Notes: a model not told the origin generated them from the sequence alone. Shown: positions 1,183-19,006, counted from the first letter of the stretch. The stretch: DNA of 64,000 bases from Candidatus Chisholmbacteria bacterium RIFCSPHIGHO2_01_FULL_52_32 (GCA_001816585.1 MHCJ01000001.1:21538-85537); one strand, 5' to 3'. Numbers and translations are program-made.

Positions 1183-1203
1183 ACTTTTGACTTTTAACTG
1201 TGG
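1183..1203 (+). promoter_or_regulatory. recurrent upstream motif copy A (GACTTTTGACTTTTAACTGTG)
   Basis: Lies 12 nt upstream of ATG 1215. Shares ACTTTT(G/C)ACTTTTAACT with four other plus-strand upstream regions. Confidence 0.45.
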
Positions 1204-1214
1204 ACTGTTCTAGA

Positions 1215-2675
1215 ATGAATTCGATGCCGAAACTCCGTCTGCTTCCCAAAATCGTAAGCGTGGTCCTCCTGCTTCTCTTTTTCTCAACCGGCCTCGCCTA
1301 CGCCCAAGGCATCTGGTACGACCCTACCCCCGAAGAACACGCCACAGCCTTACAGGAGTGCGAGAGCGGCGAAGTCGGCTTGGAGTGCACCGTCCAAGCC
1401 ATTGTTTCCGGGGTCGGCAACTCCCTAGGATATGGTGGAGCAGGTGATCCCACCATAGCCCAAAAGCCAGGTGCCATCGGCTTCGCTGCCGCGATGATTG
1501 GAAAATTGATGGGTAACCTTCCCATCTCTTCCCACGACTACGTCCAGTATGTCGCAAGCAAGATGAACATCGCCCAACCCGCCTATGCCCAGGGGACAGG
1601 TTACTCTGTCCTCTCCCCCTTAATCCGGGTCTGGAGCGCATTCCGAAATATCGCCTACCTTGCCTATGTCTTGATCTTCATCTTTATCGGCTTTATGATC
1701 ATGTTCCGTGCCAAACTCGATCCCCAAACCGTAGTCAACGTCCAGAATTCCCTCCCCAAACTCGTCATCACCCTTCTCCTCATCACTTTCTCCTATGCCA
1801 TCGCCGGGTTTATGGTGGATCTCATCTACCTAGGTATTTATATTCTGATCGCCACGTTTGATTCAGCCGGCCTCCTCGGTGAACCGACGATTGCGTTAAA
1901 CCGCCTCCTCACCCAGAATCTCTTTGAGCTTGTCTTCAAGGCCGGGCTTTGGCGCCTGACGGCCAATGCCGCCCAGTCAGTGCAGGAACTGATTTCAAGT
2001 GCCTTGGCAAATTGGTCGATCGGCAAGTACCTCGGCTCAATCAGCGGCTGGTTGGCCCATGCGGTCTTCGTGATCGCTTTGCTCTTTGCCATGTTTAAGC
2101 TTTTCTTCCAACTGGGAATAGCCTACATTCAAATCATCCTGCAAACCATCTTCGCCCCCATCTTCATCCTCTTCAACGCTCTCCCGGGGTCCCAAAGTTT
2201 CAGCAGTTGGCTGCGCAATTTCCTTTCTAATATCCTTATCTTTCCGGCCGTTGCCACGCTCTTTCTCATTGCCGCCGTTCTCTTAGGCCCCTACCAACCC
2301 GGTCCGGGTAAACCTTCGGAAGATCCGTTCGACATCACCGCTCCCTTGATTCCTTCCGGCACTCCGTTCTGGATGCCCCCGTTCATCGGTCTAGCTGGAG
2401 GGGTGGATGCGGAGGCCATTCTCCAGTTAATCGGCTTCTTCTTCATTCTCTTTGCGCCGCAGATGGTTTCAACCTTACAGCAAGCCCTGAAAGCGAAACC
2501 GCTTCCTACCGGCGGCGTCTTTGCCCCGATCGCCGCCGGTGCCGGCATTGTTGGCGGTGCCCTCGGCGCTCCCGGAAGAGCCATTGGCGGAGTAGCCAGG
2601 GGAGTTGTGGGCGGATATGTTCAACAGAAAGGCGAAGCCCTCGGCGGAGAACTCTTCCCACCAAGAAGAAGATAA
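1215..2675 (+). CDS. polytopic membrane protein with signal peptide; possible VirB6/TrbL/PrgH-like T4SS channel component
   Basis: N-terminal signal peptide (LLPKIVSVVLLLLFFSTGLAYAQG). An ~150-aa extracytoplasmic domain is followed by at least 6 predicted TM helices and a Gly/Ala-rich C-terminal tail. Call rests on topology analogy only. Alternative starts are GTG 1200 and ATG 1224. Confidence 0.5.
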   Translation: MNSMPKLRLLPKIVSVVLLLLFFSTGLAYAQGIWYDPTPEEHATALQECESGEVGLECTVQAIVSGVGNSLGYGGAGDPTIAQKPGAIGFAAAMIGKLMGNLPISSHDYVQYVASKMNIAQPAYAQGTGYSVLSPLIRVWSAFRNIAYLAYVLIFIFIGFMIMFRAKLDPQTVVNVQNSLPKLVITLLLITFSYAIAGFMVDLIYLGIYILIATFDSAGLLGEPTIALNRLLTQNLFELVFKAGLWRLTANAAQSVQELISSALANWSIGKYLGSISGWLAHAVFVIALLFAMFKLFFQLGIAYIQIILQTIFAPIFILFNALPGSQSFSSWLRNFLSNILIFPAVATLFLIAAVLLGPYQPGPGKPSEDPFDITAPLIPSGTPFWMPPFIGLAGGVDAEAILQLIGFFFILFAPQMVSTLQQALKAKPLPTGGVFAPIAAGAGIVGGALGAPGRAIGGVARGVVGGYVQQKGEALGGELFPPRRR

Positions 2676-2692: not shown

Positions 2693-5600
2693 TCATTCGG
2701 AGAGAACATATTTCTGAAGATCCGCCATCCCGCGCTTCAATGCATCATAAACAATTGTCCCTCCTGCAAAAATGAGCCCGGGAACAGAATACTGATGCAG
2801 GTAGGAAAGGACGATATCCCGTTTCCTGGCATGCAGGAGCTTTTCAAGCGTTTTTGCACCATCCTCCCCAATGTACGGCCGCAGTTCCTGGACGAACCGC
2901 CACCGCTCCGCCGTTGACAAGCTCATCCCGCTCTTTCCGAACCGCCGCTGGGCAGCCGAGGAGGACTGGTTGAAAATCTTTATATCCCGCAGAGCTCCAA
3001 CCGGCCCCAGGAAAAACCCTCCGACAAATCCTAAGATTGACCCGAGCGGACCGAGCTGTTTCTTTAGGGCATACAGCTGTTTCCCCTCAACCCACGGGTC
3101 GGCCGTGTACATGTCGTTTAAGAAAACCCCTGCCAGCGAAGCGGTAATCTTCTGCCTATCTCCCTCCCCAAGATGCCCGAGCGCCTGCTTAACCTCAAGT
3201 AGCCCCTTGACAAATTCCTCGCGGCTCTGTGGGCTACCTTCCCGTGTTCCCGATAAACCCGCCGCAAGGTGAAAAATCCCCTCCGCTCCCTTACCTGCCA
3301 TCATTCCATCGATGAAACGCCTGGCATACATCCGCGGTCCTCCTGCTCCCCAATCGGTCTCCTCATGGAGAACATCATCGAGAAACGGCGCGTAGTTGAA
3401 CCGCATCCCCGCCAATTGCTCCGCAAGATCTCTTCTCTTCCCGCCATCCGTTGCCCCAAACGCCGTCAATCTCCCGATGAGCGCTTTCTCCTGATCATTA
3501 AAATTCTCATCTGGTAACAACCCGGGCACCTCCTTCATATTTAAAAGGTTCTCTATCAAAAAATCCTCATAATATTCTTCCTGCTTTTCCCGATCTAGAG
3601 GTCGTGCGCCATTACCGTCTTCCTCGCGGATCCTTTCATAGTACCCCTGCACCGCAGCCTCCTCCACCCGCCAGAGCTTCTTTTGAGTCTCCCTCCACCT
3701 ATCCCACACCTTCTTCTCCCACTTCTCACATTGCTTAGCCCATTCCTTCCGTGGCTCATCGAGATCTTTTTCCGTCTTGATTATTTTCTGCTCTCCTCCG
3801 ATCTCAACTGTGTCTCCAATCTTCATCGTAAACTCCTCCGGCCGGTCGAATTTCGTGTGGTCGGGATCCAGTTCATCCGCAATCATCCAAACGGGAAGCC
3901 GTACACCTTCCTGCCGAAAGACCTCTTCCTGTTTCCTCTCGTGCAAACGCCGATCTCTCTCAGCCTTGGTATACTGCGCCTTCTTCTCAATAAATTCCTT
4001 ATCGTGGTCATAGTCCTGATCAGCCAAAGCCCTGTTCGCAGCATACTTCTGAAACGCCTCCATTTCCCCCGCTTTACCTTGGAAAAAGACTCCCTGAAGC
4101 CTTCCATCTTTATCATGCGCCACTGACGGGAGTAGAGACAGTGTTCGCGAAGGCATCCGTTGCGGCACCTTCTCAAGTATTTTCGTCCGCTTTTCGAGCG
4201 CCTCCTTCTTCTCTTCCTTCTTATCGTCCGTAAAATCATCCGGATGTTTGGCGTTCGCCAGCTGTACCGACAGCGCCAGATCCATCCGCTCACGAAGCGC
4301 CTTGGTTGCAAGCAAAGATCGCCAAAAAGAAGAACTCCACTCCGAGCCAAAACCGAACAGGTTCTCGGGGCTGAACTTGCTCAAAAGCAGCTCATCCTGT
4401 TTGCCATGAAAGAACGCGGGCAACATCGCATTCATCTGCGACATCAACCGCTCCATGGTTTCAAGCGAATCCCCGTACTGGTCGAACCGGTCGGCAAGGA
4501 ACCGTACCGGGTTCATCGCCGTCAGGATCTTCTCAAATGGCGGGCTGTAAAGGTGGCCTAATTCATCGCGTTCCGGCAATCTTCCTTGAGCCGCATAGTC
4601 CGCCGTCCGCATATCGGCATTGGCGATCTTCAAAGCCAAGGCCGCCAACCGTTTTGCTTCCGTTTCATCAGGAGTTACTGGAAAACGCCCGCCCTCATCA
4701 CCCTCAAACGAGTGAAAAACCCTCCCTGCTTGGGAAAGCTTTAAAAGCTCCTCGGAAACGCTCTGAACAATGGAATCCGGCCCTCCTTCAAGCGAGAGCG
4801 CCTCAAAGGTCAATCTCCCCTTGTTTTTCGGATCGAAAAGTGTGCTTGCAGTTTCCTTCTCAACTAGCCGTAGTGCTACGCCCAAGCCTGGTTCCATCCG
4901 AACAATATGACTGCGGTCCCGGGAATGTCCCATGATCTCCGCACTCTTCGCAAGTTGCTCCAGATCCCCGCCGCTCTCCATGGTGACCGAGAGGTTGTGG
5001 AATAAGCGTCGCGCAACCCACCAACCCTGGTAGTCATAGTAATAACCCATCCCTCCGCCGCTCTTCACCTTTTCCAAAAACTCACCCCAAAGCTGCCAAT
5101 CCTCACTGGCGAAGTTGAACTGCTGTCGGGGATCGACCTCAGCTTCAGAAACAATTAGGTTGAAAATCCCGTCAACCGACTGCTTTGCCTGTCGCCGCTC
5201 AGCTTGCTGGTCCCTGGCCGCTTGAGTCAAAACCTCCCCATCTCTCTCCGTGGGTTTTCTCATCCGCCGGAACACCCCATCGTACTCAAGCTTCTTCATT
5301 TTCCCCAGCACTTCATAGAATCTCGGGCTATAAAGTCGCTGTGGCTCAAGAAATTTAAATGCATGCTCGCTATCCTTTCTGAATTGTTCCCTCTCTTTCT
5401 TGAACTCCCTCCCCAGCGTCTCAAGAAACTCGGGCGAGGGAACTTCATGTCTCTCCAGTATTTCATCAACCTGCGTTGCATACTTCTCCAGCTGATCGAT
5501 ATAACCCCCGAGCAAACGCACTGCCCGATGACCAACGGGAGCATGCTCAGAAGAAAGTTCTTGCACTTCCCGCTGAACATAACCCAACCTTGCCTTGGCA

Positions 5601-6325
5601 TAAGCAAGCTCACTGTCGAGATAGCCGAGAGTAAATCCTTCCTCTTCCTCAGGCTCCGCAGCCGCCTCAACCGACGGTCCCTTCATGCCTTCGGAGGGCC
5701 CTTCCGAAGGCCCAGGAATCTTCTCCGGCCTCTCAACAACGCCACCCTGTTCCGGTCGCGCTACCTCCTCGGCCGGCTTCCCTTCCGGCTTGGCTTCCTC
5801 AACCACCCCTCCCCTCAATAATCCTTCAAGCTCGAGAGACTCCCCCTTTGATAACTGTTTTGCTCCCAAAAGCCAAAGCATAACCTCAGCATCCGTTTTC
5901 GCCCCCGCCGCCCTTGCCGCCGCTATCAGTTCCTGGTACTTCTGTTCCTTAAACAGCTTCTGGATTTCCTTCCACAAGGTCCTGAGAATTGCCAACAGAA
6001 GTTTCCAAAGACCTGCCCGCTCTTTCTCGGGTATCTCCTCCCCTTTTTCTCTTTTCTTGAGGAACGCGAACAGCTGTTTGAGCTTCTCATCGGCAACTTC
6101 CGGCTTTGTCACCACTCCTTTTTCCTTGACCTTCTCCAGCGCTTCCTTGAAAAGCGCCTCCCGCATGTCCCAACTTTTGTCCACATCCTTGGCTTCAGCC
6201 GGAGGCTTCGGCTTCTCCGACCCACCACCGGAAGACCCCGCCGCCCGTCGCTCCGGCCTCTCCCTCCTGGGGGGCTTTCCTTGAGATTCCGGATTTTTCT
6301 TTAGTCCATCCTCATGCTCTGCCAT
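2693..6325 (-). CDS. large hypothetical protein (1210 aa), highly charged/coiled-coil-rich with a C-terminal hydrophobic Gly-rich segment
   Basis: Uninterrupted 3.6-kb ORF with a K/E/R-rich N-terminus and a GYYYDYQGWW motif. C-terminal segment LGPLGSILGFVGGFFLGPVGAL. No P-loop or other catalytic signature seen. Confidence 0.6.
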   Translation of the reverse strand: MAEHEDGLKKNPESQGKPPRRERPERRAAGSSGGGSEKPKPPAEAKDVDKSWDMREALFKEALEKVKEKGVVTKPEVADEKLKQLFAFLKKREKGEEIPEKERAGLWKLLLAILRTLWKEIQKLFKEQKYQELIAAARAAGAKTDAEVMLWLLGAKQLSKGESLELEGLLRGGVVEEAKPEGKPAEEVARPEQGGVVERPEKIPGPSEGPSEGMKGPSVEAAAEPEEEEGFTLGYLDSELAYAKARLGYVQREVQELSSEHAPVGHRAVRLLGGYIDQLEKYATQVDEILERHEVPSPEFLETLGREFKKEREQFRKDSEHAFKFLEPQRLYSPRFYEVLGKMKKLEYDGVFRRMRKPTERDGEVLTQAARDQQAERRQAKQSVDGIFNLIVSEAEVDPRQQFNFASEDWQLWGEFLEKVKSGGGMGYYYDYQGWWVARRLFHNLSVTMESGGDLEQLAKSAEIMGHSRDRSHIVRMEPGLGVALRLVEKETASTLFDPKNKGRLTFEALSLEGGPDSIVQSVSEELLKLSQAGRVFHSFEGDEGGRFPVTPDETEAKRLAALALKIANADMRTADYAAQGRLPERDELGHLYSPPFEKILTAMNPVRFLADRFDQYGDSLETMERLMSQMNAMLPAFFHGKQDELLLSKFSPENLFGFGSEWSSSFWRSLLATKALRERMDLALSVQLANAKHPDDFTDDKKEEKKEALEKRTKILEKVPQRMPSRTLSLLPSVAHDKDGRLQGVFFQGKAGEMEAFQKYAANRALADQDYDHDKEFIEKKAQYTKAERDRRLHERKQEEVFRQEGVRLPVWMIADELDPDHTKFDRPEEFTMKIGDTVEIGGEQKIIKTEKDLDEPRKEWAKQCEKWEKKVWDRWRETQKKLWRVEEAAVQGYYERIREEDGNGARPLDREKQEEYYEDFLIENLLNMKEVPGLLPDENFNDQEKALIGRLTAFGATDGGKRRDLAEQLAGMRFNYAPFLDDVLHEETDWGAGGPRMYARRFIDGMMAGKGAEGIFHLAAGLSGTREGSPQSREEFVKGLLEVKQALGHLGEGDRQKITASLAGVFLNDMYTADPWVEGKQLYALKKQLGPLGSILGFVGGFFLGPVGALRDIKIFNQSSSAAQRRFGKSGMSLSTAERWRFVQELRPYIGEDGAKTLEKLLHARKRDIVLSYLHQYSVPGLIFAGGTIVYDALKRGMADLQKYVLSE

Positions 6326-6428
6326 AGCTTTACTTTCATAGTACTACAAACACCAACGCTAAGTAATTTTCACCATTTTCCAGAGTTAAACGGTATTCTA
6401 CCACAAAAACTATAAAGGGTCAACCAGT

Positions 6429-6455
6429 ATTCAGTCTGCCAATGGCAGACTGAAT
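6429..6455. repeat. perfect 13-bp inverted repeat ATTCAGTCTGCCA-A-TGGCAGACTGAAT (operator-like palindrome or hairpin)
   Basis: Read directly. The arms 6429-6441 and 6443-6455 are exact reverse complements. Sits in the divergent intergenic region between the 1210-aa gene (start 6325) and the second four-helix-bundle gene. Confidence 0.7.
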
Positions 6456-6509
6456 CATTGTTATATTGCTACATTGAAACATTGCTGCTCTTTTTGTAAA
6501 GTTCCAATC

Positions 6510-6884
6510 ATGAAGAAGTATTTAAAGTTGAATGACATTAATTGCTATAAAAGGTCCCTGACGCTATCACAACATGTGTGGGAGATTGTGAATTCGTGGG
6601 AAAAGTTCGCCAAAAGCACTGTTGGTATCCAATATGTCAAAGCCATAGATTCAATTTCCGCAACGATTTCCGAAGGTTTCGGGCGCTTCTTTAAGAAAGA
6701 TAAGATCTTGTTTTACCGCTATAGCCTGGGTTCCGTAACTGAAGCTCTTGATTGGACCCAAAAATCCTGGAAGCGCAAACTCCTAACGAAAGTTCAATAT
6801 GAACATATCTTGAATGAACTTCAAGAACTTCCAAGGGAAATTCGCTATCTGATCAAATTCACAGGTGAAAAATTGAAGAAGTAA
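6510..6884 (+). CDS. four-helix-bundle protein (23S rRNA IVS protein family), second copy
   Basis: ATG at 6510 (MKKYLKLNDINCYKRSLTLSQHVWEIV...). Motifs GFGRFFKKDKILFYRYSLGSVTEALDW match the family. The ORF track's TTG start at 6474 is also possible. Confidence 0.65.
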   Translation: MKKYLKLNDINCYKRSLTLSQHVWEIVNSWEKFAKSTVGIQYVKAIDSISATISEGFGRFFKKDKILFYRYSLGSVTEALDWTQKSWKRKLLTKVQYEHILNELQELPREIRYLIKFTGEKLKK

Positions 6885-6935: not shown

Positions 6936-7238
6936 TTAAGCCGCTCCCGCGGCTTTCCTCGGCCTCCCTCCTCTCTTCCCATACTCCCTCGGAGTTAACA
7001 CAGAAGAAAAATGCGCGGATACTGCCTTCTCCGTGGTGAACCAAATCCACGGGAACCCTTTCTTTTTACTCTCCCTTCTCCGCTTCTCTCCCTCTATCTT
7101 TCCGGTGTTCAAGAGCCTGCGAATCCGATGTGTCGATCTCCCAACCTTCCTTGCCACCTCCGCCACCGAAAGCAACCCCTCCTTTTCCGGAGTCCTCACC
7201 GCTTCAACTGGTGGAGCTAAACCCTCTTTCTCCTCCAT
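6936..7238 (-). CDS. helix-turn-helix DNA-binding protein, excisionase/MerR-like
   Basis: LLSVAEVARKVGRSTHRIRRLLNTGKIEGEK is a typical HTH. Basic C-terminus. Start chosen at MEEKEG (7238); the longer ORF to 7286 is possible. Confidence 0.55.
   Translation of the reverse strand: MEEKEGLAPPVEAVRTPEKEGLLSVAEVARKVGRSTHRIRRLLNTGKIEGEKRRRESKKKGFPWIWFTTEKAVSAHFSSVLTPREYGKRGGRPRKAAGAA
6938..6955 (+). terminator. GC-rich hairpin AAGCCGC-TCCC-GCGGCTT downstream of the four-helix-bundle gene (no T-tract)
   Basis: 7-bp stem with a 4-nt loop. The same 16-mer AGCCGCTCCCGCGGCT forms the groEL terminator at 41059-41074. Overlaps the last codons of the convergent HTH gene. Confidence 0.35.
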
Positions 7239-7831: not shown

Positions 7832-10675
7832 ATGCCCGACCAACCTCCGATAAAAGAGCCTCCGCCGACATCTCCGCCAATCTCGAAAGAAGGATCCCAG
7901 CCTCTCGAGAGCCGATTCCAAAACTACCTCACCCTCCGTCGCCATATTAATGACCAATTCCTCATCAACGCCTCGGCGAAGGCCTCGCCGTTCTTATCCT
8001 CCGAGGTCAACCCCGCCCTCACCCAAACTGCTGCACATATCATTGGCCAACGCGCCATCCGCTATCTCCCGGAAGGGGACATCACTCAACCCGACCTCAT
8101 TCAGGCTATCCTGGCCGCCCAAAATGAGCTTGCCGATCGCGAGGTCTGGTTTGCGGCAACCCTTCCCAATAAAACCGATCGGAAGATCCTCGCCGAAACC
8201 ATAAGCCTTACGATAAGTCCTTCGCAAGCCCAGGCCGCGGTCCAGGAAGAAGCCGCCTTTGCCCAAGCGACACTCGATGATCTTCCCGAAAAACAAACTG
8301 CCATAGCCCAGATCGAAGCGGAACTGGTCAATGCCGGTGTCGATCCCAAAAAAAGCAAAACCCTGGCAACCCAGTTGAACACCCGCTTCGAAACTTGGTC
8401 CGAAAGAAGCCAAGCCGCTACCCCCCCACCCGTCATCCATGCCTTCGTCCGTCAAGCCGTTGGGCGCAGGATTGAAAACACACAAAATCTCTCGGAACGG
8501 TTGGCTCAAAAAGACGGTTTACACCAACGCACCGAGGCGATTGGTCACAACGCGGACAAAGGCCTCTCCTCGATCAAAAAAGGCCTCAAGATCACCGGCA
8601 GATTCCCGACCTCTCCGGGACTGCAAAAGGTCGGCAGGGTCCTCAAAGCCGGGGATATTATCAGCCACCCATTCTTCTACGCCAGAAGAGCCATTACTTT
8701 CCCCTTCCGCTATCTCGGCAGACAGATTGCCAGGCCGATGGTAAAGTTCGCCAAACGCACCGCCATCAAAGTGACATCCTGGACCGTGAAAAGGGTGGCC
8801 GCCTTCCTCGTCAAGGTCGGCCTCGGTTCTCTGGTCCGCTATGCGGAAGAGCTCGCCCTCGCCGGTACAGGCTTCGGCCTCCCCCTCGCCATCGCCCAAG
8901 AGCTCTTCTTCATCGGAACCGGAAAGTTCTTCAAGACCGTTAAACGAATAGCCAATGACTATAAAGAAACCTTCCGTGAGGGTATGCGAAACCCGCTCCT
9001 GGGTAGTCTGAAGTTTATCGGAACAGTAGCTGATCACGGCAGTAGCGTGGTCTTCGGCTCAGCCGGAGCCGTCCTCGGTACAGTATCGGGCGTCGCGATC
9101 GGTGCCCTGATCGGCTCGGTCGTTCCGGTTGTGGGTACCATCATCGGCGGTATCATCGGCGGCATTGCCGGAGGCGTCTTCGGCGCCGGCGTTGGGGCGG
9201 ACTTCGGCTACAAGCTGCGCAAAAGAGTTGAGAAAATGCTCAAAGCCAGGCTTGTCCTCTACCTCCTCATGAAAGCTCTCATCGCGAAACTCACCGGTGT
9301 TGTCGTCGGCTTTGGCCTAGGCGGCGTGCTCGGCTTTTTGTTGTCGGGAGGAAACCCATTAGGAGCTGTCCTCGGCGGCCTGACCGGAGGCTTCATCGGA
9401 GCCAACGCCCCGCAAATCCTCCAAGCGGTCAAGAATTTCGTCCTCAATGCCTGGCAATCAGCCTCCGGGGCCTTCCAGTCCCTCACCGCCGGACCGGGGC
9501 TTGTTTCCCAAACCGTTTCTGGGGTCGGTAACCTTCTCGGGCAAATACCATCCACCATTGCCAAAGGCTTCAACACCGCCACCGGCTGGATCAGCGGAAC
9601 AACCGTCAACACCGCCGCCACCGCGGAAAGTATCGGCGGCCAGATATTAACGACCGGTCCCTCGGCAACCCTCGTAGCCACACCGATCGCCACGGTCGGC
9701 CTTGTCACGCTCTTCTCCCTTATTGCCTACTCAGTCTTAACCGCCGCCTTCTTCGTCCCCCCGACCGAAGTCACTCCATTTTATGACGATCCCTCAAGAT
9801 TTATAAAGATCAGAAAACAAGCTTGCGTTGCCGGTACAGCCCCATTTGGATGTACACAAAACCAAATGAACCTCCCCAACCCGACCGAACAAGGCCCCTA
9901 CACCATCACCTACACCATCACCGTTGAGGCAACCGACCGCACCCTCACCGCCGTCACCATCAAGGACGAGTACACCAGCTTCGGCCGGTACCAAAGCCCT
10001 ACCAAAGCCCCAGAGGCTCCGCCCGCTCCCCCAGCCAGAACCTGGGACGGGGGAATTGTCATCCAAAACGGGCGACCCTGGACAACCACCCTAACCGTAA
10101 GCATTCCCAAAGCCACTATCTGGGACGATGCCATCCTCACCAATACGGTCACCGTCACGGCCACCGTTGAAGGTTTCTCTGATGAAGTAACCAACTCTAA
10201 GTCAGTCACCCTCATCTTCGGCAACCCACCCTTCTGCCCTCCGAATGGAGATCCTCTCGACAATCCATATTCCGTATCCGGGTATAGATACCTGAATCCT
10301 CTTTTCCATACTGGAGTCGATATCACCAATGGCTTCGGCAACCCGATATATTCAACCTTCCCTTGCCAGGCGCAAGTGGTCTTTTCCGGCTGGGGCACTG
10401 GTGGTTTCGGCTACTTCGTTGCGTTGCAAAGCGGGACTTGGTTTGCCTTCTATCCCCACATGGCCACCGATCCAGATGTCGGTGTAGGCGATATTGTCGG
10501 ATTCGGCACCGTGCTTGGGGCAGTGGGCAGCACCGGTAACTCTAGCGGCCCCCATCTCCATTACGAGATTAGAGACGGCACAAAAGGTGCTGTAAATCCA
10601 GCCGATAACTATCAACCACCCCTCACTGTCAATCCCTGCGACTTTGGTATAAATCCAACGAATTCATGTAACTGA
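7832..10675 (+). CDS. large membrane protein with glycine-zipper TM region and C-terminal M23/LytM peptidase domain; putative T4SS-associated cell-wall hydrolase (VirB1/PrgK/TcpG analogue)
   Basis: 947 aa. Middle region has multiple GxxxG-rich TM helices (GAVLGTVSGVAIGALIGSVVPVVGTIIGGIIGGIAGGVFGAGVGA). A Thr-rich beta-repeat region follows. C-terminus carries the M23 motifs HTGVDI...GYFVALQSG...GSTGNSSGPHLHYEI. Confidence 0.7.
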   Translation: MPDQPPIKEPPPTSPPISKEGSQPLESRFQNYLTLRRHINDQFLINASAKASPFLSSEVNPALTQTAAHIIGQRAIRYLPEGDITQPDLIQAILAAQNELADREVWFAATLPNKTDRKILAETISLTISPSQAQAAVQEEAAFAQATLDDLPEKQTAIAQIEAELVNAGVDPKKSKTLATQLNTRFETWSERSQAATPPPVIHAFVRQAVGRRIENTQNLSERLAQKDGLHQRTEAIGHNADKGLSSIKKGLKITGRFPTSPGLQKVGRVLKAGDIISHPFFYARRAITFPFRYLGRQIARPMVKFAKRTAIKVTSWTVKRVAAFLVKVGLGSLVRYAEELALAGTGFGLPLAIAQELFFIGTGKFFKTVKRIANDYKETFREGMRNPLLGSLKFIGTVADHGSSVVFGSAGAVLGTVSGVAIGALIGSVVPVVGTIIGGIIGGIAGGVFGAGVGADFGYKLRKRVEKMLKARLVLYLLMKALIAKLTGVVVGFGLGGVLGFLLSGGNPLGAVLGGLTGGFIGANAPQILQAVKNFVLNAWQSASGAFQSLTAGPGLVSQTVSGVGNLLGQIPSTIAKGFNTATGWISGTTVNTAATAESIGGQILTTGPSATLVATPIATVGLVTLFSLIAYSVLTAAFFVPPTEVTPFYDDPSRFIKIRKQACVAGTAPFGCTQNQMNLPNPTEQGPYTITYTITVEATDRTLTAVTIKDEYTSFGRYQSPTKAPEAPPAPPARTWDGGIVIQNGRPWTTTLTVSIPKATIWDDAILTNTVTVTATVEGFSDEVTNSKSVTLIFGNPPFCPPNGDPLDNPYSVSGYRYLNPLFHTGVDITNGFGNPIYSTFPCQAQVVFSGWGTGGFGYFVALQSGTWFAFYPHMATDPDVGVGDIVGFGTVLGAVGSTGNSSGPHLHYEIRDGTKGAVNPADNYQPPLTVNPCDFGINPTNSCN

Positions 10676-10680
10676 AGGGG

Positions 10681-10686
10681 TATAAT
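10681..10686 (+). promoter_or_regulatory. TATAAT -10 box 8 nt upstream of ATG 10695 (would give a leaderless transcript)
   Basis: GGGGTATAATAAAAACCGATG read directly. Lies in the 19-nt gap after the upstream stop. Confidence 0.3.
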
Positions 10687-10694
10687 AAAAACCG

Positions 10695-11759
10695 ATGCAA
10701 TATCGTCTTTCACTCTCCACATTGAAAAGGATCCTCTCCGTAAAAACGGCTCTGTTAATCCTTCTCGTGATTATAATTTTCACCTTAATCGTAGTTATCC
10801 AAAGAGCGCGTCGGAAAGAAACACAACCTCCGGGGGTAAACCCCACATTCGGAGATATTCCTGCCCCAAAACCATCGTACGTTTCCCAGATGAAACCACC
10901 TCAATCAACCGAACTAACACCAGATGAGCAAATCAACCTCAGTGAAACTGCCACTGTCTTCCGACGCGCCTCAACCACACTGACCGATAAACAGGCCAGA
11001 GATATCGCACGTTCATTCGGAATCTCAGGAGAACCCCTGACCTCAAAAACCTCTGTAACATTCCGTGAGAATAACCGCGTGCTTATCGTCAGCTTCAAAA
11101 AAGGTTCGCTTTCATACTTCGAACCCTTGCAGGAGTATCTGAAAGACTTCAGACAGAAAGCCTTGGAAGATTATGCTCTGATTCTCCTCAAACAGCTTTA
11201 CCCCGGGGATCCGCTTTGGGCAAACCCAAAAGTCAAGACTGGTTTCTTCACCATCATTGAGATGCAAGACTTCAAACCCACTGCTCCAAATAAAGCCGAT
11301 CTTGCAATCGTCGATCTTTATCCCACAATCGAGGGACTAAGCATTGTTGGCCCCTTCGATCCCTTCGGACACACCGGAATGGTAAGTATACAATTCAATA
11401 AAAGAGACGGCAGCCTCGTGTTAAACGGCCTGCCAACAGGACTGAACACAGCCCAGGTTGGTACCTATCCGCTGAAGAGCCTTGACGCAGTCCAAGAGGA
11501 AATCAAGCTTGGCCAAGTAACGTTAACTGCCACCATTCCTGAAGGGCAAACCCCAAAAAGCGTGGACTGGGGACAAAACCTCGATCCAACCAAGGCTAGC
11601 TTTACTTCAATCGAACTGGTCTACTACTATGATCCCGATCCTAACGCTTTCCTTCAGCCTATATACCTTTTTTCCGGAAAAACCACCCTTACCGACGGAC
11701 GCCCCGCCAACATTTTCGCCATCCTCCCCGCCATCGACCCCCAATACCTCAAGCCCTAA
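10695..11759 (+). CDS. bitopic membrane-anchored protein (N-terminal TM, ~300-aa extracytoplasmic domain); possible VirB8/TcpC-like
   Basis: TM helix ALLILLVIIIFTLIVVI near the N-terminus. Size and topology resemble TcpC/VirB8-type proteins, but no motif-level support. Confidence 0.5.
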   Translation: MQYRLSLSTLKRILSVKTALLILLVIIIFTLIVVIQRARRKETQPPGVNPTFGDIPAPKPSYVSQMKPPQSTELTPDEQINLSETATVFRRASTTLTDKQARDIARSFGISGEPLTSKTSVTFRENNRVLIVSFKKGSLSYFEPLQEYLKDFRQKALEDYALILLKQLYPGDPLWANPKVKTGFFTIIEMQDFKPTAPNKADLAIVDLYPTIEGLSIVGPFDPFGHTGMVSIQFNKRDGSLVLNGLPTGLNTAQVGTYPLKSLDAVQEEIKLGQVTLTATIPEGQTPKSVDWGQNLDPTKASFTSIELVYYYDPDPNAFLQPIYLFSGKTTLTDGRPANIFAILPAIDPQYLKP

Positions 11760-11785
11760 ACCCCCTACCCTCAACCCTCTCCCCT

Positions 11786-11794
11786 TGCTATAAT
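11786..11794 (+). promoter_or_regulatory. extended -10 promoter TGcTATAAT
   Basis: TTGCTATAATG read directly. An imperfect hairpin follows (AAGGAGTAAGTG ... CACTTATTCCTT), ending just before ATG 11875. Confidence 0.35.
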
Positions 11795-11874
11795 GCCCTT
11801 GTGAGAAAGAGTAAGGAGTAAGTGTAAAGTCGTTAAAGACTTACCACCTATTCCTATTCACTTATTCCTTGTTT

Positions 11875-12978
11875 ATGGAACAGCACCCCGTCCCCCAGCA
11901 AATCTCCGCCTACCACTTTCGCTTGGTTGGCGACATGACCATCAAACAATTCGTCGAGCTTGCCGGCGGCATCGTCGTCGGCTGGGTCATCTACTCCCTC
12001 CCCGTCCACGCGATCCTCCGCTGGCCCCTGGTGATTTTCTCGGTGTTCGTCGGCATCGCCCTGGCCTTCCTCCCCTTTGAAGAGCGGCCTCTGGATCGCT
12101 GGTTTTTTGCCTTCATCAAAGCCATCTACTCCCCAACCCAGCTCCTCTGGAGAAAGGCGCCAATCGTTCCCGCCTTCTTCGAAGAAATACAGGTTTCCGC
12201 ACCATCCGCCGCGGAAGAAAGGAGCGGTGCTGACAAAACCAGGCTCCAAGAATACTTGGAAACCCTCCCGGCCCAAGGACCCATGACAAACATCGATAAA
12301 AAAGAGCTGCACTTCGTCTCGGACATCATGAAGCTCTATTTAGAAGTCCAACCCACCACCATCCAAGCCGTTCGTCCGGCTCGCCCGATCCTTGAGGAAG
12401 AACGCGTTCCTAAGGTAGCGGTCCGCAAGCTCAAAACCCCGCCGCTTGATCCCCGCGCGATTATGCGGGGCGAAATCATCATGCCCAAGCGCACTTCTGG
12501 TAAACCGAGGAAAATTCAGATTCCCAAATTCGAACCGATCGAGGTAGACAAGTTCGCGGGGGTCCTCCCCACCCCACCTTCTCCTATTTCCCCGCAGGAG
12601 ACCCCAGCCCTCGATTTGGGAGGAATTTCCCCGGCCGCCACCATCAGGCCGAAACAACCCCAAAGACCTTCCGTCCAGGCAAGCGTCCGCCCGGACCTCC
12701 CCATCCCAACTCCCCCGACCGAACCGAACGTCCTTGTTGGCATGGTGGTCGACAGAGAAGGGAATATTCTCGATAACACCATCGTGACAATCAGAACTAA
12801 GGAAGGAAATATCGCTCGTGCCCAGAAGACCAACAAAATCGGTCAATTCTTTATCATCACCCCCCTCGAAAACGGAACCTACGCGGTCGAAGTTGAGCGG
12901 GAGGGCTTCACCTTTGATATAATCAAAATCGAGCTTATCGGAAAACCGGTCCCGCCAATCGATATCCGCGCCAAATAA
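11875..12978 (+). CDS. VirB3/PrgI-like 2-TM protein fused to a C-terminal carboxypeptidase-regulatory-like (prealbumin-fold) domain
   Basis: N-terminal hairpin of two TM helices (GGIVVGWVIYSLPV...LVIFSVFVGIALAFLPF) sits immediately upstream of the VirB4 genes, as PrgI/VirB3 does. A Pro-rich linker follows. C-terminus VGMVVDREGNILDNTIVTIRTKEGN...GTYAVEVEREGFTF resembles a CarboxypepD_reg beta-sandwich. Confidence 0.5.
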   Translation: MEQHPVPQQISAYHFRLVGDMTIKQFVELAGGIVVGWVIYSLPVHAILRWPLVIFSVFVGIALAFLPFEERPLDRWFFAFIKAIYSPTQLLWRKAPIVPAFFEEIQVSAPSAAEERSGADKTRLQEYLETLPAQGPMTNIDKKELHFVSDIMKLYLEVQPTTIQAVRPARPILEEERVPKVAVRKLKTPPLDPRAIMRGEIIMPKRTSGKPRKIQIPKFEPIEVDKFAGVLPTPPSPISPQETPALDLGGISPAATIRPKQPQRPSVQASVRPDLPIPTPPTEPNVLVGMVVDREGNILDNTIVTIRTKEGNIARAQKTNKIGQFFIITPLENGTYAVEVEREGFTFDIIKIELIGKPVPPIDIRAK

Positions 12979-12996
12979 GCGAAAGGGTTAATTTTT

Positions 12997-13023
12997 AACT
13001 TTTCACTTTTAACTTTTAACTAT
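12997..13023 (+). promoter_or_regulatory. recurrent upstream motif copy C (AACTTTTCACTTTTAACTTTTAACTAT)
   Basis: Ends 4 nt before ATG 13028. No SD. Confidence 0.45.
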
Positions 13024-13027
13024 TTCC

Positions 13028-13978
13028 ATGGCTCCCGCCCCAATCCAAGCCTCAACCCAAGAACACCTCGAACTTGAGGATATCATCGACAATCTCATCA
13101 TTTTAAAAGACGGCTCTGCCGCCATGATTATCACCACGACGGCCGTCAACTTCGGTCTCCTCTCAGAATCAGAGCAGGACGCAACCATCTACGCCTACGC
13201 CGCGCTGTTGAACTCCCTCACCTTTCCCATCCAGGTCCTCATCCGCTCAAACCGAAAGGACATCACCGGCTACGAAAAGCTTCTCTCCGAGCAGGAAGCC
13301 CGGACTCCCAAGCCGGAGAACAAAGAGCGCATCCGAAAATATCGGGAGTTTATCCAAGAAACCGTCCGTCAACGGAATGTGCTGGACAAAAAGTTCTATA
13401 TCATCATTCCGTTCTCCGTGCTCGAACTGGGAGTGGCCAAATCCGCCTCAGCCATCGCCAAAGGCACCCGCCACACCCTTCCCTTTCCGAAGGACTACAT
13501 CGCCGGTCGAGCCAAGGTTGCCCTTGAACCAAAGCGCGACCACCTCCTTCACCAGCTAGCCAGGCTCGGTCTGCGCGCAAGGCAACTCACCACCAAAGAG
13601 CTGATTCAGCTCATGTTTGAAATCTACAATCCCGAAAGTGCCCAAGGACAGCTTCTCGCTCCTCCGGAGGAGTATCAAACTCCCCTTGTTCGAGCGGCCA
13701 TCGCTTTCCAGGAGCTCCCCCAAATCGAACCCCCCCAACCGCAACCGGCAAAACCGCCTTTCCAAGCCCCTCCTCCGCCCTTAAACCCATTACCGGGAAG
13801 TCAGCCTCAAGTAGTAAGAGAAAATCCTGGACTATCCCAATCCGGCCCCCAAATCACAAGGGAAAATGCCCCGCCTGCTCCCCCCCAAACAACAATCGGA
13901 GATTCAGGCTTTGAGAAACAAGCCCAATCGACCATCGATTCAGCGATGAGCGGTGTCAATGTGAAGGAGGAAGTCTAA
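13028..13978 (+). CDS. VirB4/TrbE N-terminal-domain protein with Pro-rich C-terminal tail (apparent N-terminal half of a split VirB4)
   Basis: LEDIIDNLIILKDGSAAMIITTTAVNFGLLSESEQDATIYAYAALLNSLTFPIQVLIRS follows the l.KDGs...fe..G.dle..s..E.......N.aL..L pattern of TraC/TrbE/VirB4 N-termini. Stop TAA 13976-13978 overlaps ATG 13978 of the next ORF (TAATG). Confidence 0.55.
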   Translation: MAPAPIQASTQEHLELEDIIDNLIILKDGSAAMIITTTAVNFGLLSESEQDATIYAYAALLNSLTFPIQVLIRSNRKDITGYEKLLSEQEARTPKPENKERIRKYREFIQETVRQRNVLDKKFYIIIPFSVLELGVAKSASAIAKGTRHTLPFPKDYIAGRAKVALEPKRDHLLHQLARLGLRARQLTTKELIQLMFEIYNPESAQGQLLAPPEEYQTPLVRAAIAFQELPQIEPPQPQPAKPPFQAPPPPLNPLPGSQPQVVRENPGLSQSGPQITRENAPPAPPQTTIGDSGFEKQAQSTIDSAMSGVNVKEEV

Positions 13979-15930
13979 TGCCCGCCCTCGACATCATCCA
14001 AAAAATCCTCCCTGGGGCAAAACCAAAAGAAGGCCCCCAAGTTTCCCAACCAGGGGCAACACCGGGGAAAAATCCCGTCACCTCCACAAAATCGCGGGCC
14101 GTCGCCCAAAAGCTCGGCACGGGCATGGTCTCCATTCAAGACATCATTGCTCCCGAATCAATTGATGTGGACTTTTCACACTTAAAAATCGGTAATGCCT
14201 ATGTCAGAACCCTCTTTGTCGCTGGCTACCCCAGGTTCGTCAGCGCCAATTGGTTGGCTCCCTTGATAAACTTCGAGCACTCTCTCGATGTATCAATGTT
14301 CATCTATCCTGTCGAGGGCCGCGAGGTCCTCGATGAGCTCAGGCGGAAAATTGGCGAGATGGAGGCGGAAATCGAATCAGATCTCAAGCGCGGTCATATC
14401 GCCGTGGTTGATACGGAAATAAAGCTTGCCGATGCCAAGGCTCTCCAAGAAGAGCTCGCCAAAGGGGCGGAGCGCTTTTTCCAGTTCGGACTCTACGCCA
14501 CCATCACGGCAGTAACACTCGACGAGCTCAGCTCCACCACCAGAAGGGTCCAATCGCTCCTGGGCTCTCTGCTCATCATTTCCAAATCCGCAACCCTCCA
14601 AATGGAGGAAGGCTTCAAAACCACCCTTCCCCTCGGTCAAGACCGCCTTGTGATTACCCGCAATATGGATACCACCTCCCTTGCCACAACCTTTCCCTTC
14701 ACGTCTTCCGAGCTTACCGCCAACGAAGGCATTATGTATGGAATAAACGAACACAACGATTCCCTCATTATCTTCGACCGATTTAGCCTGGAAAATGCCA
14801 ACATGGTCATTTTCGGGAAAAGCGGTTCAGGGAAAAGCTTCTTTGAGAAACTCGAAATCATGCGCTCCTTAATGTTCGGGGTCGAAGTGATCGTCATCGA
14901 TCCCGAAGAAGAATATCGCCGGCTCTGCGATGCCCTTGGGGGAACCTACATTGACTTTGGCTACAATGCACCGGCGAAAATCAACCCCTACGACCTCTCC
15001 GCAATCTACGAGGAAGGGGAAAACGAGCTTGGTCTAAAAATCCTCTCCCTCCATGGACTATTAAAGGTGATGCTTGGCGATGTAACACCGAACGAAGAGG
15101 CAATCCTCGACAGAGCCCTCATTGGCACGTACAAAGCCCGAGGTATCACCCCGGATCCCGCTACCCAACGGAACGAACCGCCACTCATGGAGGACCTCTA
15201 TAAGACACTCATTGGCATGGAGGAAGCCACGGCCAAAGGGCTTTCCGACAGGCTCGAGAAATATGTCAAAGGATCATTCAGAAGCTTCTTCGATCAACAG
15301 TCCAACGTCGACCTGAAGAATTCCCTCACGGTTTTCTCTCTCAAAGAGCTGGAGAACGAAACTCGCCCGATCATCATGTACATCATCCTCGACTACATCT
15401 GGACTAAAGTGAAACGGGATATGAAAAAGCGCCTGGTCGTCGTCGATGAAGCCTGGTACCTGATGAAAAACGCGGACTCGGCTACCTTCCTCTACTCAAT
15501 CGCGAAACGGGCCCGCAAATACTTCCTCGGCCTCACCACCATCACCCAAGACGTCGAAGATTTCCTTGGATCTGACTACGGACACGCAATTATCACCAAC
15601 TCCTCAATCCAGATCCTATTCAAGCAGTCATCGGCCGCCATCGAGCGTCTCGCCGAAGCCTTTTACCTCTCAGAGGGAGAAAAGCATCTCCTTTTGGCCG
15701 CTGATGTTGGCGAGGGATTGTTTTTTGCCGGGCAAAACCACGTAGCCATGCGCGTTGTCGCCTCATCCGAGGAACATCACCTCATCACCACCAAACCCCA
15801 AGAGCTTGTAGAGCTGGAAAGAGAAAAAGAAGAAACCTCCCCCCGAACGACCGCAGCAGTTCCCCGCCCGGGGGAACGGCCGACCCCAACCAACCCACAG
15901 CCCAAAGGGCCTCCCGCTACCAGCTACTAG
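13978..15930 (+). CDS. virB4: VirB4/TrbE/CagE-family T4SS ATPase (PrgJ/TcpF-like)
   Basis: Walker A IFGKSGSGKSFF; Walker B LVVVDEAWYL. Core region RTLFVAGYPRFVSANWLAPLINFEHSLDVSMFIYP matches the CagE_TrbE_VirB domain. 650 aa. Confidence 0.85.
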   Translation: MPALDIIQKILPGAKPKEGPQVSQPGATPGKNPVTSTKSRAVAQKLGTGMVSIQDIIAPESIDVDFSHLKIGNAYVRTLFVAGYPRFVSANWLAPLINFEHSLDVSMFIYPVEGREVLDELRRKIGEMEAEIESDLKRGHIAVVDTEIKLADAKALQEELAKGAERFFQFGLYATITAVTLDELSSTTRRVQSLLGSLLIISKSATLQMEEGFKTTLPLGQDRLVITRNMDTTSLATTFPFTSSELTANEGIMYGINEHNDSLIIFDRFSLENANMVIFGKSGSGKSFFEKLEIMRSLMFGVEVIVIDPEEEYRRLCDALGGTYIDFGYNAPAKINPYDLSAIYEEGENELGLKILSLHGLLKVMLGDVTPNEEAILDRALIGTYKARGITPDPATQRNEPPLMEDLYKTLIGMEEATAKGLSDRLEKYVKGSFRSFFDQQSNVDLKNSLTVFSLKELENETRPIIMYIILDYIWTKVKRDMKKRLVVVDEAWYLMKNADSATFLYSIAKRARKYFLGLTTITQDVEDFLGSDYGHAIITNSSIQILFKQSSAAIERLAEAFYLSEGEKHLLLAADVGEGLFFAGQNHVAMRVVASSEEHHLITTKPQELVELEREKEETSPRTTAAVPRPGERPTPTNPQPKGPPATSY

Positions 15931-15966: not shown

Positions 15967-17115
15967 CTACTTCTGCACCCGAACGGGCATGATCAGATGA
16001 AAAAAAGCTTCCTTTTCAGAAGCAGGGCGGAACACCCCGGGATCCAATCCCCCATTCATTCCAAACACTATCTTCTCCGTCGGAAAAATGGACAAAAGCT
16101 CTAAAAGATACCGGCTGTTAAAAGCGATCTCGCCCTCCCCTCCGGAAAGAGAAATCTCAACCATGTTTTCGCCTTCACCATATGAAGGGGCGTTGGCAGA
16201 AATCGTCAGTCCGGTCTTCTGAAGCTTCCACTGAATGATGTTTGCGCTATCCCGAGCAAAAATCGCAGCCGCTCGAACTGCCCTGAGGAGGGACTCACGA
16301 TCGATGTTCGCCACAATCTTCTCCTCTTTGGGAATAACTTGAGAAAAGTTGGGGAAAGACCCCTCGATGAGCCGGGTTGTCACTTCCCCGTCGCCAAGGC
16401 GGAACATGAGAAGATTCTGTTCAGGAACGAGCCCAAAAGACACTTCGGAAGCGCCAAGCTCATCCGCCAAACGGTCGACATCCCGTAAAGCGCGTGCCGG
16501 GACAATCAATCCCTCTCCTACCACCTTTTTTAGTGCCTTCTGCCACTTCTCTCCTTTCTTTTCCGAATCGGATGAAAGCTGTACCACGCTCAAGCGATAG
16601 CCATCGGTAGCTACAAACTGTAGTCCATTCCCTTCAAGCCTCAGCAAAACGCCGGAGAGGACCGGCCGTGTCTCATCGGAGGATGCCGCAAACACAACCC
16701 TCTCCACTGCCTCCCGAAACGAAGAAACAGGGAGGGAAAACTCCCCGGTACCCGAAACTTGGCTTAAAGATGGAAACTCCATCGCAGGAATACCGGAAAG
16801 TCGGGCCCGATAGGAACCGCACTGGATCCGAAGCGATTCTCCCTCCAAAGACAGCTCAACCGGAGCCAGCGGAAAAGACGAAACAAGCTCACCAAAAACC
16901 TTCGCCGGAACCGTTATCGCTCCCTCTTTCTTTACCTTCGCCCCAATCCGAAGCTGAATCCCCAGACTTAAGTCCGTCGCAGCCAGCTGGAGGATTCCCT
17001 CTTTCGCTGTCAGCAGAACATTCGAAAGAATAGGCAGAGACGGTTTAGAAGAAACCGCATAGGCAACTGACGAGAGACCCTTAACGAGCTTATCCTGAAG
17101 AACTGAAACCTGCAT
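15967..17115 (-). CDS. dnaN: DNA polymerase III beta sliding clamp
   Basis: 382 aa with typical three-domain clamp sequence (LSNVLLTAKEGILQLAATDL...). Adjacent to dnaA. Confidence 0.9.
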   Translation of the reverse strand: MQVSVLQDKLVKGLSSVAYAVSSKPSLPILSNVLLTAKEGILQLAATDLSLGIQLRIGAKVKKEGAITVPAKVFGELVSSFPLAPVELSLEGESLRIQCGSYRARLSGIPAMEFPSLSQVSGTGEFSLPVSSFREAVERVVFAASSDETRPVLSGVLLRLEGNGLQFVATDGYRLSVVQLSSDSEKKGEKWQKALKKVVGEGLIVPARALRDVDRLADELGASEVSFGLVPEQNLLMFRLGDGEVTTRLIEGSFPNFSQVIPKEEKIVANIDRESLLRAVRAAAIFARDSANIIQWKLQKTGLTISANAPSYGEGENMVEISLSGGEGEIAFNSRYLLELLSIFPTEKIVFGMNGGLDPGVFRPASEKEAFFHLIMPVRVQK

Positions 17116-18994: not shown

Positions 18995-19006
18995 CGAAAC
19001 CGGGGG

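Follow-up and report, generated by a model that had tools for sequence, protein, structure and literature searches.

A large, rapidly diverging protein encoded convergently with virB6 in the type IV secretion locus of Candidatus Chisholmbacteria

Type IV secretion in Patescibacteria and the Chisholmbacteria locus

The T4SS (type IV secretion system) is among the few machines with a demonstrated essential role in the epibiotic life of Patescibacteria, the ultra-small Candidate Phyla Radiation (CPR) bacteria to which Chisholmbacteria belong. According to a 2025 survey (Quinonero-Coronel et al., PMC12102498), this T4SS derives from the mating-pair-formation class FATA (MPF-FATA) and has a split TrsD/VirB4 pair, PrgI, VirB6 and VirB2 pilin arrays, and no relaxase. 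Systems of this type also have no nearby coupling protein (PMC12102498; PMC10633639, Wang et al. 2023; PMC11665869). The system is essential in Southlakia (PMC10633639), and its substrate has been described as completely unknown (PMC11665869, PMC10633639). Here we analyze a gene from such a locus in Candidatus Chisholmbacteria bacterium RIFCSPHIGHO2_01_FULL_52_32, which encodes a protein of 1210 amino acids (aa) that we call BIG. The gene lies in a stretch of 64,000 nucleotides (nt; GCA_001816585.1, MHCJ01000001.1:21538-85537), referred to as the window, and coordinates are counted from its first letter. BIG is a testable candidate for a cargo of the T4SS or a determinant of host specificity; alternatively, it would be a subunit of a new kind, located in the cytoplasm and substituting for the coupling protein that is absent.

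Two proteins of Southlakia epibionticum, SEML1_0011 and SEML1_0013, are like BIG large, helical, unannotated and encoded in the T4SS cluster. According to PMC10633639, their genes are next to those of PrgI, VirB6 and the pilins and are essential by transposon sequencing (Tn-seq), and the proteins are ~1000 aa long with ARM-like helical domains. The description sets them apart from BIG: they are polytopic, with VirB6- or ABC-permease-like domains fused to the helical domains, and are encoded on the strand of the apparatus genes, whereas BIG is non-polytopic and is the product of a separate, convergent gene. An exhaustive HMMER search linked BIG only to 26 proteins of Microgenomatia type; the Southlakia proteins were compared with it by description.

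Outside Patescibacteria, CagA of Helicobacter pylori is a signal-less, mostly helical and fast-evolving protein of ~1200 aa, the single dedicated substrate encoded in its T4SS island, and it associates with the target membrane; it belongs to a diderm system with a coupling protein and a dedicated chaperone. BIG resembles CagA by analogy only, with no similarity of sequence or fold. A second analogy is with the effectors of type III secretion systems (T3SS) and T4SS that carry transmembrane (TM) domains, a functional class and not a family, which are synthesised in the cytoplasm and have no Sec signal and TM segments of moderate hydrophobicity; the C-terminal helix of BIG, with a family-mean Kyte-Doolittle (KD) value of ~1.06, would be comparable, the export of BIG being a proposal. 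Krampen et al. reportedly found in 2018 that moderate hydrophobicity is typical of TM-bearing T3SS and T4SS substrates, which in this way evade targeting by the signal recognition particle. A third comparison concerns the coupling protein and its adaptor platform (VirD4/DotL-DotM-IcmSW) and the hydrophilic domains of extended VirB6 or F-TraG, which are located in the cytoplasm or close to the membrane at the channel entrance. BIG could in principle fill the role of a type IV coupling protein (T4CP), but in contrast to these proteins it has no NTPase domain, no N-terminal TM segment and no polytopic VirB6 domain. Three identities of this kind find no support. A coupling protein (VirD4/TcpA) would have an FtsK/HerA-type P-loop NTPase domain with Walker A and B motifs and N-terminal TM helices, whereas BIG matches nothing in Pfam or NCBIfam, its single Walker-A-like string is not conserved as GK[ST], and it has no N-terminal TM segment. 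A VirB6/TrbL protein, extended forms included, requires at least five TM segments, versus one strong and one weak hydrophobic segment in BIG, both C-terminal. A split extended VirB6 is indirectly disfavoured too, no polytopic protein being found among the 26 relatives, bar one hydrophobic segment in P0010.

The genes around BIG match the cluster described in PMC12102498 and PMC10633639: TrsD-like and VirB4 proteins, PrgI/VirB3, VirB6 and a large M23 hydrolase are encoded (with VirB2-type pilin arrays in relatives), there is no relaxase or nearby T4CP, and the chromosomal locus adjoins dnaA and dnaN. An original prediction, made from the sequence of the window, had described a single 3.6-kb open reading frame (ORF) inside a T4SS-like block, and both the ORF and its placement were borne out. 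BIG starts with ATG and occupies positions 2693..6325 on the minus strand, separated by 17 nt from a convergent gene for a VirB6-like polytopic membrane protein (1200..2675, plus strand; weak TrbL match, a signal sequence and ~8 TM segments). Every other large product of the cluster is either an ATPase or a protein with a membrane segment or a signal. The surrounding T4SS is already known; the BIG family is unannotated and without recognisable fold relatives. BIG is best read as the form that a dedicated and rapidly diversifying companion protein of the patescibacterial T4SS takes in Chisholmbacteria, as tightly linked to the machine as the core subunits yet evolving like a host-interaction factor.

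A divergent family tied to the secretion locus

Judged by comparison with other genomes, BIG is a genuine gene and no chance ORF, because full-length homologs with 25-42% identity occur in nine other assemblies. A protein with a 100% match to it is deposited (P0027; OGY19057.1 / OGY19652.1 / UniRef100_A0A1G1VV46), labelled "hypothetical protein" in metagenome-assembled genomes (MAGs) of Candidatus Chisholmbacteria, and is present on 8 contigs. The original prediction had called BIG an orphan. Word-index searches in 5.8 billion proteins, queried with BIG alone and with profiles of 3 and of 27 sequences, gave 2-3 proteins, including two full-length homologs at ~40% identity, and to that extent the term fits; when 1.84 billion cluster representatives were searched exhaustively with a HMMER profile, however, 26 matches emerged at E ≤1e-3 (12 at ≤1e-10), all of them unannotated. 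The weaker matches are true relatives according to local jackhmmer and hhalign comparisons (core versus distant members: probability 100%, E 2e-41). Members of the family are 824-1850 aa long, and the surplus of the longest (P0007 and P0010) is N-terminal to the conserved cores. The closest homolog of BIG is ~40% identical, and synonymous sites are saturated. Scanning GTDB genomes with motifs of BIG gave no match, and the corresponding metagenome scan recovered only the already known locus L001. No homology of BIG to a housekeeping protein family, one of the findings that were to refute the prediction, was detected.

Genomic contexts were covered for 11 of the 26 matches, six from the core family (L001, L002, L004, L006, L007 and L008) and five from distant members (L009, L010, L011, L092 and L093). 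All 11 lie in a T4SS cluster, and in each the BIG-family gene is convergent with a gene of ~490-550 aa in the VirB6 position, the spacing ranging from a 4-nt overlap (L011) to 51 nt. Where the contig reaches, the BIG-family gene is surrounded by genes for VirB4, TrsD, PrgI and a large hydrolase, together with as many as seven T4SS_pilin genes. Core-family loci have a helix-turn-helix (HTH) gene of ~100 aa before the BIG-family gene on the same strand, conserved in all of them; its counterpart in the window is a small HTH_17/excisionase-like gene co-directional with BIG (6936..7238, minus strand; 100 aa from the likely true ATG at 7238). Among distant members the preceding gene differs, being flavokinase-like (L010 and L011) or a divergently oriented Trans_reg_C gene (L092). 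BIG had been predicted to be transcribed against its neighbours and flanked by two four-helix-bundle genes. It is indeed convergent with virB6 and opposite to the nearest four-helix-bundle gene, but it shares its direction with the HTH gene in a conserved pairing, and one four-helix-bundle gene is directly adjacent (6474-6884) while the other lies beyond virB6 (809-1174).

We compared protein identities over seven genome pairs. BIG ranged from 25 to 42%, and the other proteins were VirB4 (77-92%), TrsD (64-82%), PrgI (57-83%), VirB6 (46-61%), DnaN (58-66%), the M23 hydrolase (28-59%) and a 354-aa protein (34-55%). By this measure BIG is the fastest-evolving gene of the cluster, or tied for it, and only two extracytoplasmic proteins, the M23 hydrolase and the 354-aa protein, come near it in divergence.

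Two side observations concern members of the family. A flavokinase-fold gene (PF01687; 139-148 aa) is found on the same strand upstream of distant BIG relatives, at 8517-8936 in L010 and 401-847 in L011. In L010 it overlaps the start of the BIG-like gene by 4 nt, which suggests translational coupling, and its product possibly has a chaperone or adaptor role. The other observation is a TGA codon in place of GGA (Gly466) within BIG itself (window 4928-4930; L005 position 4104), seen in the independent assembly ENA ERZ27254844, which represents essentially the same strain as the window (1 mismatch in 4290 nt). The TGA cuts BIG to 465 aa (P0003), and the full-length form is found on 8 contigs versus the truncated form on 1; the latter may be either a true allele with loss of function or an artefact of assembly.

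A variable slot convergent with virB6

A scan of GTDB genomes anchored on the PrgI-like protein yielded 80 loci, in which ORFs and starts were called mechanically. The informatively titled records among them belong to Chisholm-, Woese-, Collier-, Blackburn-, Beckwith- and Shapirobacteria (Microgenomatia-type Patescibacteria), the Chisholmbacteria loci being the closest. A convergent pair was present in 51 of the 80 loci, consisting of a plus-strand ORF of 400-700 aa and, after a gap of ~16 nt in the median, a minus-strand ORF of 469-1186 aa; many of the remaining loci end upstream of PrgI. The plus-strand partner was homologous to the VirB6-like protein of the window in all 51 (single-sequence phmmer, E ≤2e-20 at Z = 1e6), in a group for which the 2025 survey (PMC12102498) reports VirB6 as scarce owing to divergence. 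The same type of search with BIG matched only one of the 51 minus-strand ORFs (L012), and with the profile of the BIG family only three Chisholmbacteria-type loci matched.

The proteins encoded in this slot fall into ~20 groups unlinked by BLAST. A few groups are linked to one another by hhalign (97.8%, 99% and 95% probability), and none to BIG (≤0.4%); even in five loci with the same gene order and an ORF of similar size no homology to BIG was found (hhalign ≤0.5%), and hmmsearch, jackhmmer and hhalign were all negative for homology between BIG and the other slot families. Concerning the anticipated co-occurrence with the T4SS, the BIG family is present in every Chisholmbacteria-type cluster examined, whereas other Microgenomatia that keep the T4SS have no recognisable homolog and carry unrelated large proteins in the slot. 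The close convergent layout of virB6 and the slot gene is itself conserved across deep divergence. This gives a synteny rule by which slot equivalents can be located in hundreds of uncultured genomes, namely a large reverse-strand ORF abutting virB6. The hypervariable slot convergent with virB6 appears to be a new observation; neither it nor the BIG protein is described in the available text of PMC12102498 or PMC10633639.

Although unrelated by these searches, the slot proteins are alike in character: 26-38% of their residues are charged, strong TM segments are almost absent, there is no signal peptide, and the N-terminus tends to be acidic (net charge of -2 in the median versus +1 in controls, p = 6e-16). 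A start of the form M[PAS][DE] is found in 30 of 54 slot ORFs versus 22 of 546 control ORFs, or in 11 of 20 versus 9 of 49 at the level of families; this motif was defined post hoc, after the data had been seen, and serves as a lead only. In loci L012-L091 slot proteins often open with this start followed by an acidic stretch rich in Pro, Glu, Gly and Asn, as in MPDGMSPEK and MPEGNMPVEN, and similarly in the opening of BIG, MAEHEDGLKKNPES. The common N-terminus may be a recognition tag, or a remnant of common ancestry. A C-terminal motif common to the slot families was looked for and none was found.

The spacers between virB6 and the slot gene (2676-2692 in the window; L001-L011, L092 and L093; the 51 GTDB loci) measure ~0-50 nt, with a median of ~16 nt. 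There is therefore no room for separate intergenic terminators, and the transcripts of both sides probably overlap.

Sequence features and predicted structure of BIG

The charged composition claimed by the original prediction is confirmed, with 11.7% Glu, 8.3% Lys and 7.4% Arg, 33% of charged residues in all, and a single Cys. The start of BIG is kept in close homologs. Its N-terminal ~49 aa (6179..6325; this and the following segments are on the minus strand) are charged, rich in Pro, Gly, Glu and Lys, acidic, and predicted to be disordered, with a predicted local distance difference test (pLDDT) score <50 over model residues 1-39. No signal peptide, cell-wall anchor (lipobox or LPXTG) or N-terminal TM segment was found in the sequence. 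An acidic, Pro-rich linker at aa ~173-230 (5636..5809) is modelled with low confidence, rich in indels and poorly conserved.

Two cores are conserved. The first, at aa ~390-690 (4256..5158), has the top alignment occupancy and the best pLDDT (70-93). It includes the aromatic motif GYYYDYQGWW already pointed out in the prediction (aa 427-436; 5018..5047; family consensus YYEYQSWW), of which the three closest homologs all keep Y429, Y432, Q433, W435 and W436. The second core, at aa ~960-1170 (2816..3448), is the region common to the most distant relatives. In the alignment of the family it contains the motif FLDDVLHEETDWG (aa 981-993; 3347..3385), and its near-invariant residues are D984, G996, R1002, R1003, D1006, S1123, Q1126 and G1130, the first five being at least 90% conserved in 12 family members. 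The nearly invariant AQRRFGK motif (aa 1125-1131; 2933..2953) resembles a Walker A motif without being a P-loop: the pattern [AG]xxxxGK[ST] matches AQRRFGKS (1125-1132) in BIG, but the homologs have Glu or Asp after GK, and no NTPase family model of Pfam or NCBIfam matches BIG, in agreement with the predicted lack of a P-loop.

Hydrophobic segments are confined to the C-terminal part. The Gly-rich segment singled out by the prediction, LGSILGFVGGFFLGPVGAL (aa 1094-1112; 2990..3046; KD mean 1.76), is strongly hydrophobic in BIG and weakly so on family average. A second and more conserved helix, which the prediction had missed, is found at aa ~1171-1198 (2732..2815; also delimited as aa 1171-1189); it is moderately hydrophobic and represents the only hydrophobic peak conserved on the family average.

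Searches of BIG against Pfam, NCBIfam, PHROGs and PADLOC gave no match, nor did searches of PDB sequences with the single sequence and with a 12-sequence profile. Running Pfam on all 27 family members revealed no consistent domain, and scattered single matches were treated as noise. An AlphaFold2 model from a 3-sequence alignment was unusable (pLDDT 38), and we used instead a model of residues 11-1210 built from 12 family members (mean pLDDT 67, predicted template-modelling score 0.64, 621 residues with pLDDT ≥70). The model is nearly all-alpha, with ~49 helices and three tiny beta-hairpins; aa ~1-49 and ~173-230 are disordered, and the hydrophobic elements near the C-terminus are modelled with low confidence. 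With this moderate-confidence model as a whole-chain query, Foldseek found nothing significant, either in the PDB, where the ARM/HEAT-type alpha-solenoids CRM1 and SA2 came closest (E ≥0.12, TM-score ≤0.13), or in BFVD, where the best matches were long helical phage proteins (E 7e-3, TM-score 0.08). Generic solenoid and tape-measure matches of this kind were rejected as evidence on BIG. The BIG family adds a predicted fold without a match among solved structures.

Possible roles of BIG

The organisms are uncultured, and what follows on function draws on comparative genomics and the moderate-confidence model. Of the roles proposed by the original prediction, a secreted effector and a large scaffold both stay in contention, and the comparative evidence leans to an exported host-interaction protein. 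Our preferred reading, which is tentative, sees BIG as a dedicated host-interaction protein that would be produced in the cytoplasm, exported by the T4SS and inserted into a membrane by its C-terminal helices. BIG, synthesised without a Sec signal, would be brought to the VirB4/VirB6 channel and be exported by the T4SS in the direction of the host. At that site a membrane would take up the hydrophobic and Gly-rich helices of its C-terminus, and its helical body would act on or contact host components; host-driven selection would explain both its divergence and its replacement between lineages.

We favour export because a machine-like linkage together with a cargo-like evolution is otherwise hard to explain, and because this type of T4SS is without a known substrate and without conjugation functions (PMC12102498, PMC10633639, PMC11665869). 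The linkage of the family to the T4SS is tight and exclusive (11 of 11 contexts). BIG is signal-less, whereas all other non-ATPase genes of the cluster encode TM or signal-bearing proteins; it diverges fastest in the cluster, and the contents of the slot are unrelated while the VirB6 partner is homologous. The slot proteins are alike in charge and in their acidic N-termini, and the C-terminal helix of BIG is conserved and moderately hydrophobic. BIG also has its own transcription unit with the upstream HTH gene, and a separate, strong promoter-like site (TTGACC-17-TG-TAGAAT; 6395..6423, minus strand; a consensus match only) ~70 nt upstream of its start codon. In lacking a Sec signal, being linked to a T4SS and having a moderately hydrophobic segment, BIG is compatible with the class of membrane-inserting T4SS effectors.

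Several points weigh against export, which is proposed from comparative evidence. BIG has no recognisable T4SS translocation signal, none being defined for monoderm or patescibacterial systems, and there is no coupling protein in the cluster or among the tested large ORFs of the window by which a cytoplasmic substrate would be recruited. A fixed position and universal presence are equally expected of a structural subunit, and helical solenoid scaffolds can evolve fast without host pressure. In addition, the Gly-rich hydrophobic segment is not well conserved, the AlphaFold2 model was compared as a whole chain only and is of moderate confidence, and the N-terminal motif is post hoc with a modest enrichment at the family level.

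An alternative that we consider possible though doubtful makes BIG a part of the T4SS itself, as a structural or gating subunit on the cytoplasmic side. It would form an alpha-solenoid platform that its C-terminal helix holds at the membrane and that docks on VirB4, TrsD and VirB6, where it would act as a substrate receptor or adaptor in place of the missing coupling protein. The absence of a signal peptide fits this role, as does the all-alpha, solenoid-like model, whose only, insignificant, Foldseek neighbours are solenoids of exportin and cohesin type. The same is true of the invariable position beside virB6 in every cluster of the lineage, the conserved C-terminal hydrophobic helix and the lack of a T4CP gene in the cluster, and two essential T4SS proteins of ~1000 aa in Southlakia combine membrane and ARM-like helical domains (supplement of PMC10633639). 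However, the putative partners VirB4 and VirB6 are far more conserved than BIG over the genome pairs compared, the slot protein of sister lineages is not detectably homologous though VirB6 is (1 of 51 versus 51 of 51), the length of BIG-family proteins more than doubles across the family, and BIG is transcribed separately from both apparatus operons.

The preferred reading of BIG as an exported protein can be extended to the whole slot, in which case slot proteins would be the T4SS cargo, one diversifying giant helical protein per lineage, recognised by a short acidic N-terminal tag, passing through the VirB4/VirB6 channel into the host envelope and anchored there by the C-terminal helices so as to set up or keep open a nutrient-extracting contact. 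We regard this extended scenario as unlikely; if true, the slot would be a genomic determinant of host specificity in these episymbionts.

It is improbable that the HTH gene and BIG form a regulatory or T4SS-independent cytoplasmic module that resides in the cluster, for instance a sensor-regulator of the T4SS and pilins or a chromosome-associated protein near the origin. Such a module would account for the co-directional HTH_17/excisionase-like gene, for the locus adjoining dnaA/dnaN, for the ECF sigma gene at the cluster edge in relatives, and for the separate promoter-like site together with a possible operator. The latter is a perfect palindrome with a 12-bp stem, ATTCAGTCTGCCA ATG GCAGACTGAAT (6429..6455), located between the divergent starts of BIG and the adjacent four-helix-bundle gene and directly upstream of the promoter-like -35 element of BIG; from its sequence it could serve either as an operator bound by the HTH protein or as a terminator acting in both directions. 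Yet the pairing with virB6 holds in all 11 contexts, even where the hydrolase is moved or the HTH gene is replaced by a flavokinase-like or Trans_reg_C gene; BIG has no DNA-binding, sensor or signalling domain; and a regulator would not usually be as long as 1210 aa or so extremely diverged.

Very unlikely, too, is a novel and unrecognisable DNA-processing protein, a relaxase-like T4SS substrate paired with an excisionase-like accessory protein of small size. Relaxases are T4SS substrates that are large and have no signal, more variable than mating-pair-formation genes and often preceded by small HTH or ribbon-helix-helix accessory genes; BIG has invariant polar residues (DD..HEE, RR..D, AQRRFG), and very different relaxases might still await discovery in Patescibacteria (PMC12102498). 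Against this, searches of the 27 family members, and of the PDB with the profile, gave neither a domain nor a motif of the HUH, Rep_trans, tyrosine-recombinase, PD-(D/E)XK, primase or helicase kind, the all-alpha model does not resemble the folds known for relaxases, the chromosomal cluster adjoins the origin and the window shows neither an integrase nor the boundaries of an element, and the HTH partner is not conserved in distant relatives. A conjugative relaxase of a known mobility (MOB) class is not supported, given the missing catalytic domain, the missing PDB match and the all-alpha model. Finally, although its large size and rapid evolution would suit a T4SS surface adhesin analogous to PrgB, a role left unfilled in that no such adhesin is reported for Patescibacteria in the available text of PMC12102498, the adhesin suggested by the original prediction is scarcely credible and not supported, since BIG has no Sec signal peptide, lipobox, LPXTG anchor or beta-rich repeat domains and is instead a helical protein with 33% charged residues and an acidic disordered N-terminus.

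Other genes of the locus

Upstream of the HTH gene, a divergent T4SS operon on the plus strand (7832..15930) encodes the M23 hydrolase (7832-10675; 3 TM segments), the 354-aa bitopic protein, a PrgI/VirB3-like protein, a TrsD-like protein of 316 aa (13028-13978) and the VirB4 ATPase of 650 aa (13978-15930), the start of which shares 1 nt with the stop codon of the TrsD-like gene. The split TrsD-like/VirB4 pair agrees with the TrsD/VirB4 pairing reported for Patescibacteria. The genes dnaN and dnaA follow on the minus strand (15967..19116) and put the cluster next to the replication origin; the GC skew levels off at ~16-18 kb of the window. No relaxase or coupling protein was found in the T4SS cluster or among the large ORFs of the window that were tested, of which the others are housekeeping genes (YidC, ValRS, GroEL, PGK, GAPDH, MetRS and an AddA-like helicase-nuclease). 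VirB2-type pilin arrays are present in relatives (L002, L004, L006, L010 and L011), and the window ends before that region.

An extracytoplasmic function (ECF)-type sigma-70 gene is conserved just beyond the seven-gene T4SS_pilin array of relatives and divergent from it (L004 21250-21867; L006 21496-22059; L011 10195-10839). This gene, which lies outside the window, is a candidate for a dedicated regulator of the pilin/VirB6 operon. L001, the closest relative, has a ParE/PhD toxin-antitoxin pair inside the T4SS operon (4169-4689), between the PrgI-like gene and that of ~355 aa; the pair is absent from the window.

Both four-helix-bundle genes of the window (809-1174, assigned by family match, and 6474..6884, between the HTH gene and BIG; both on the plus strand) belong to the 23S_rRNA_IVP family (TIGR02436). 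There is one such gene in L001 (9351-9728) and L004 (15189-15518), none in L002 and L006-L008, and a further copy in L005 (2150-2524), with varying place and orientation. These genes behave like mobile or dispensable insertions, one of which splits the conserved HTH-BIG pair in the genome of the window.

Many of the 80 locus records (L015-L028 and others) are titled "uncultured Gammaproteobacteria", "Pseudomonadales", "Bathyarchaeia" or "Nevskiaceae" despite a clearly patescibacterial locus with T4SS, dnaN and dnaA; such titles are probably taxonomic mislabels of MAGs. At the left edge of the window, a Cys/Gly/Tyr-rich ORF of 191 aa (188-763, plus strand), without a family match, may correspond to the C-terminal portion of a conserved gene of ~340-376 aa located before virB6 in relatives.

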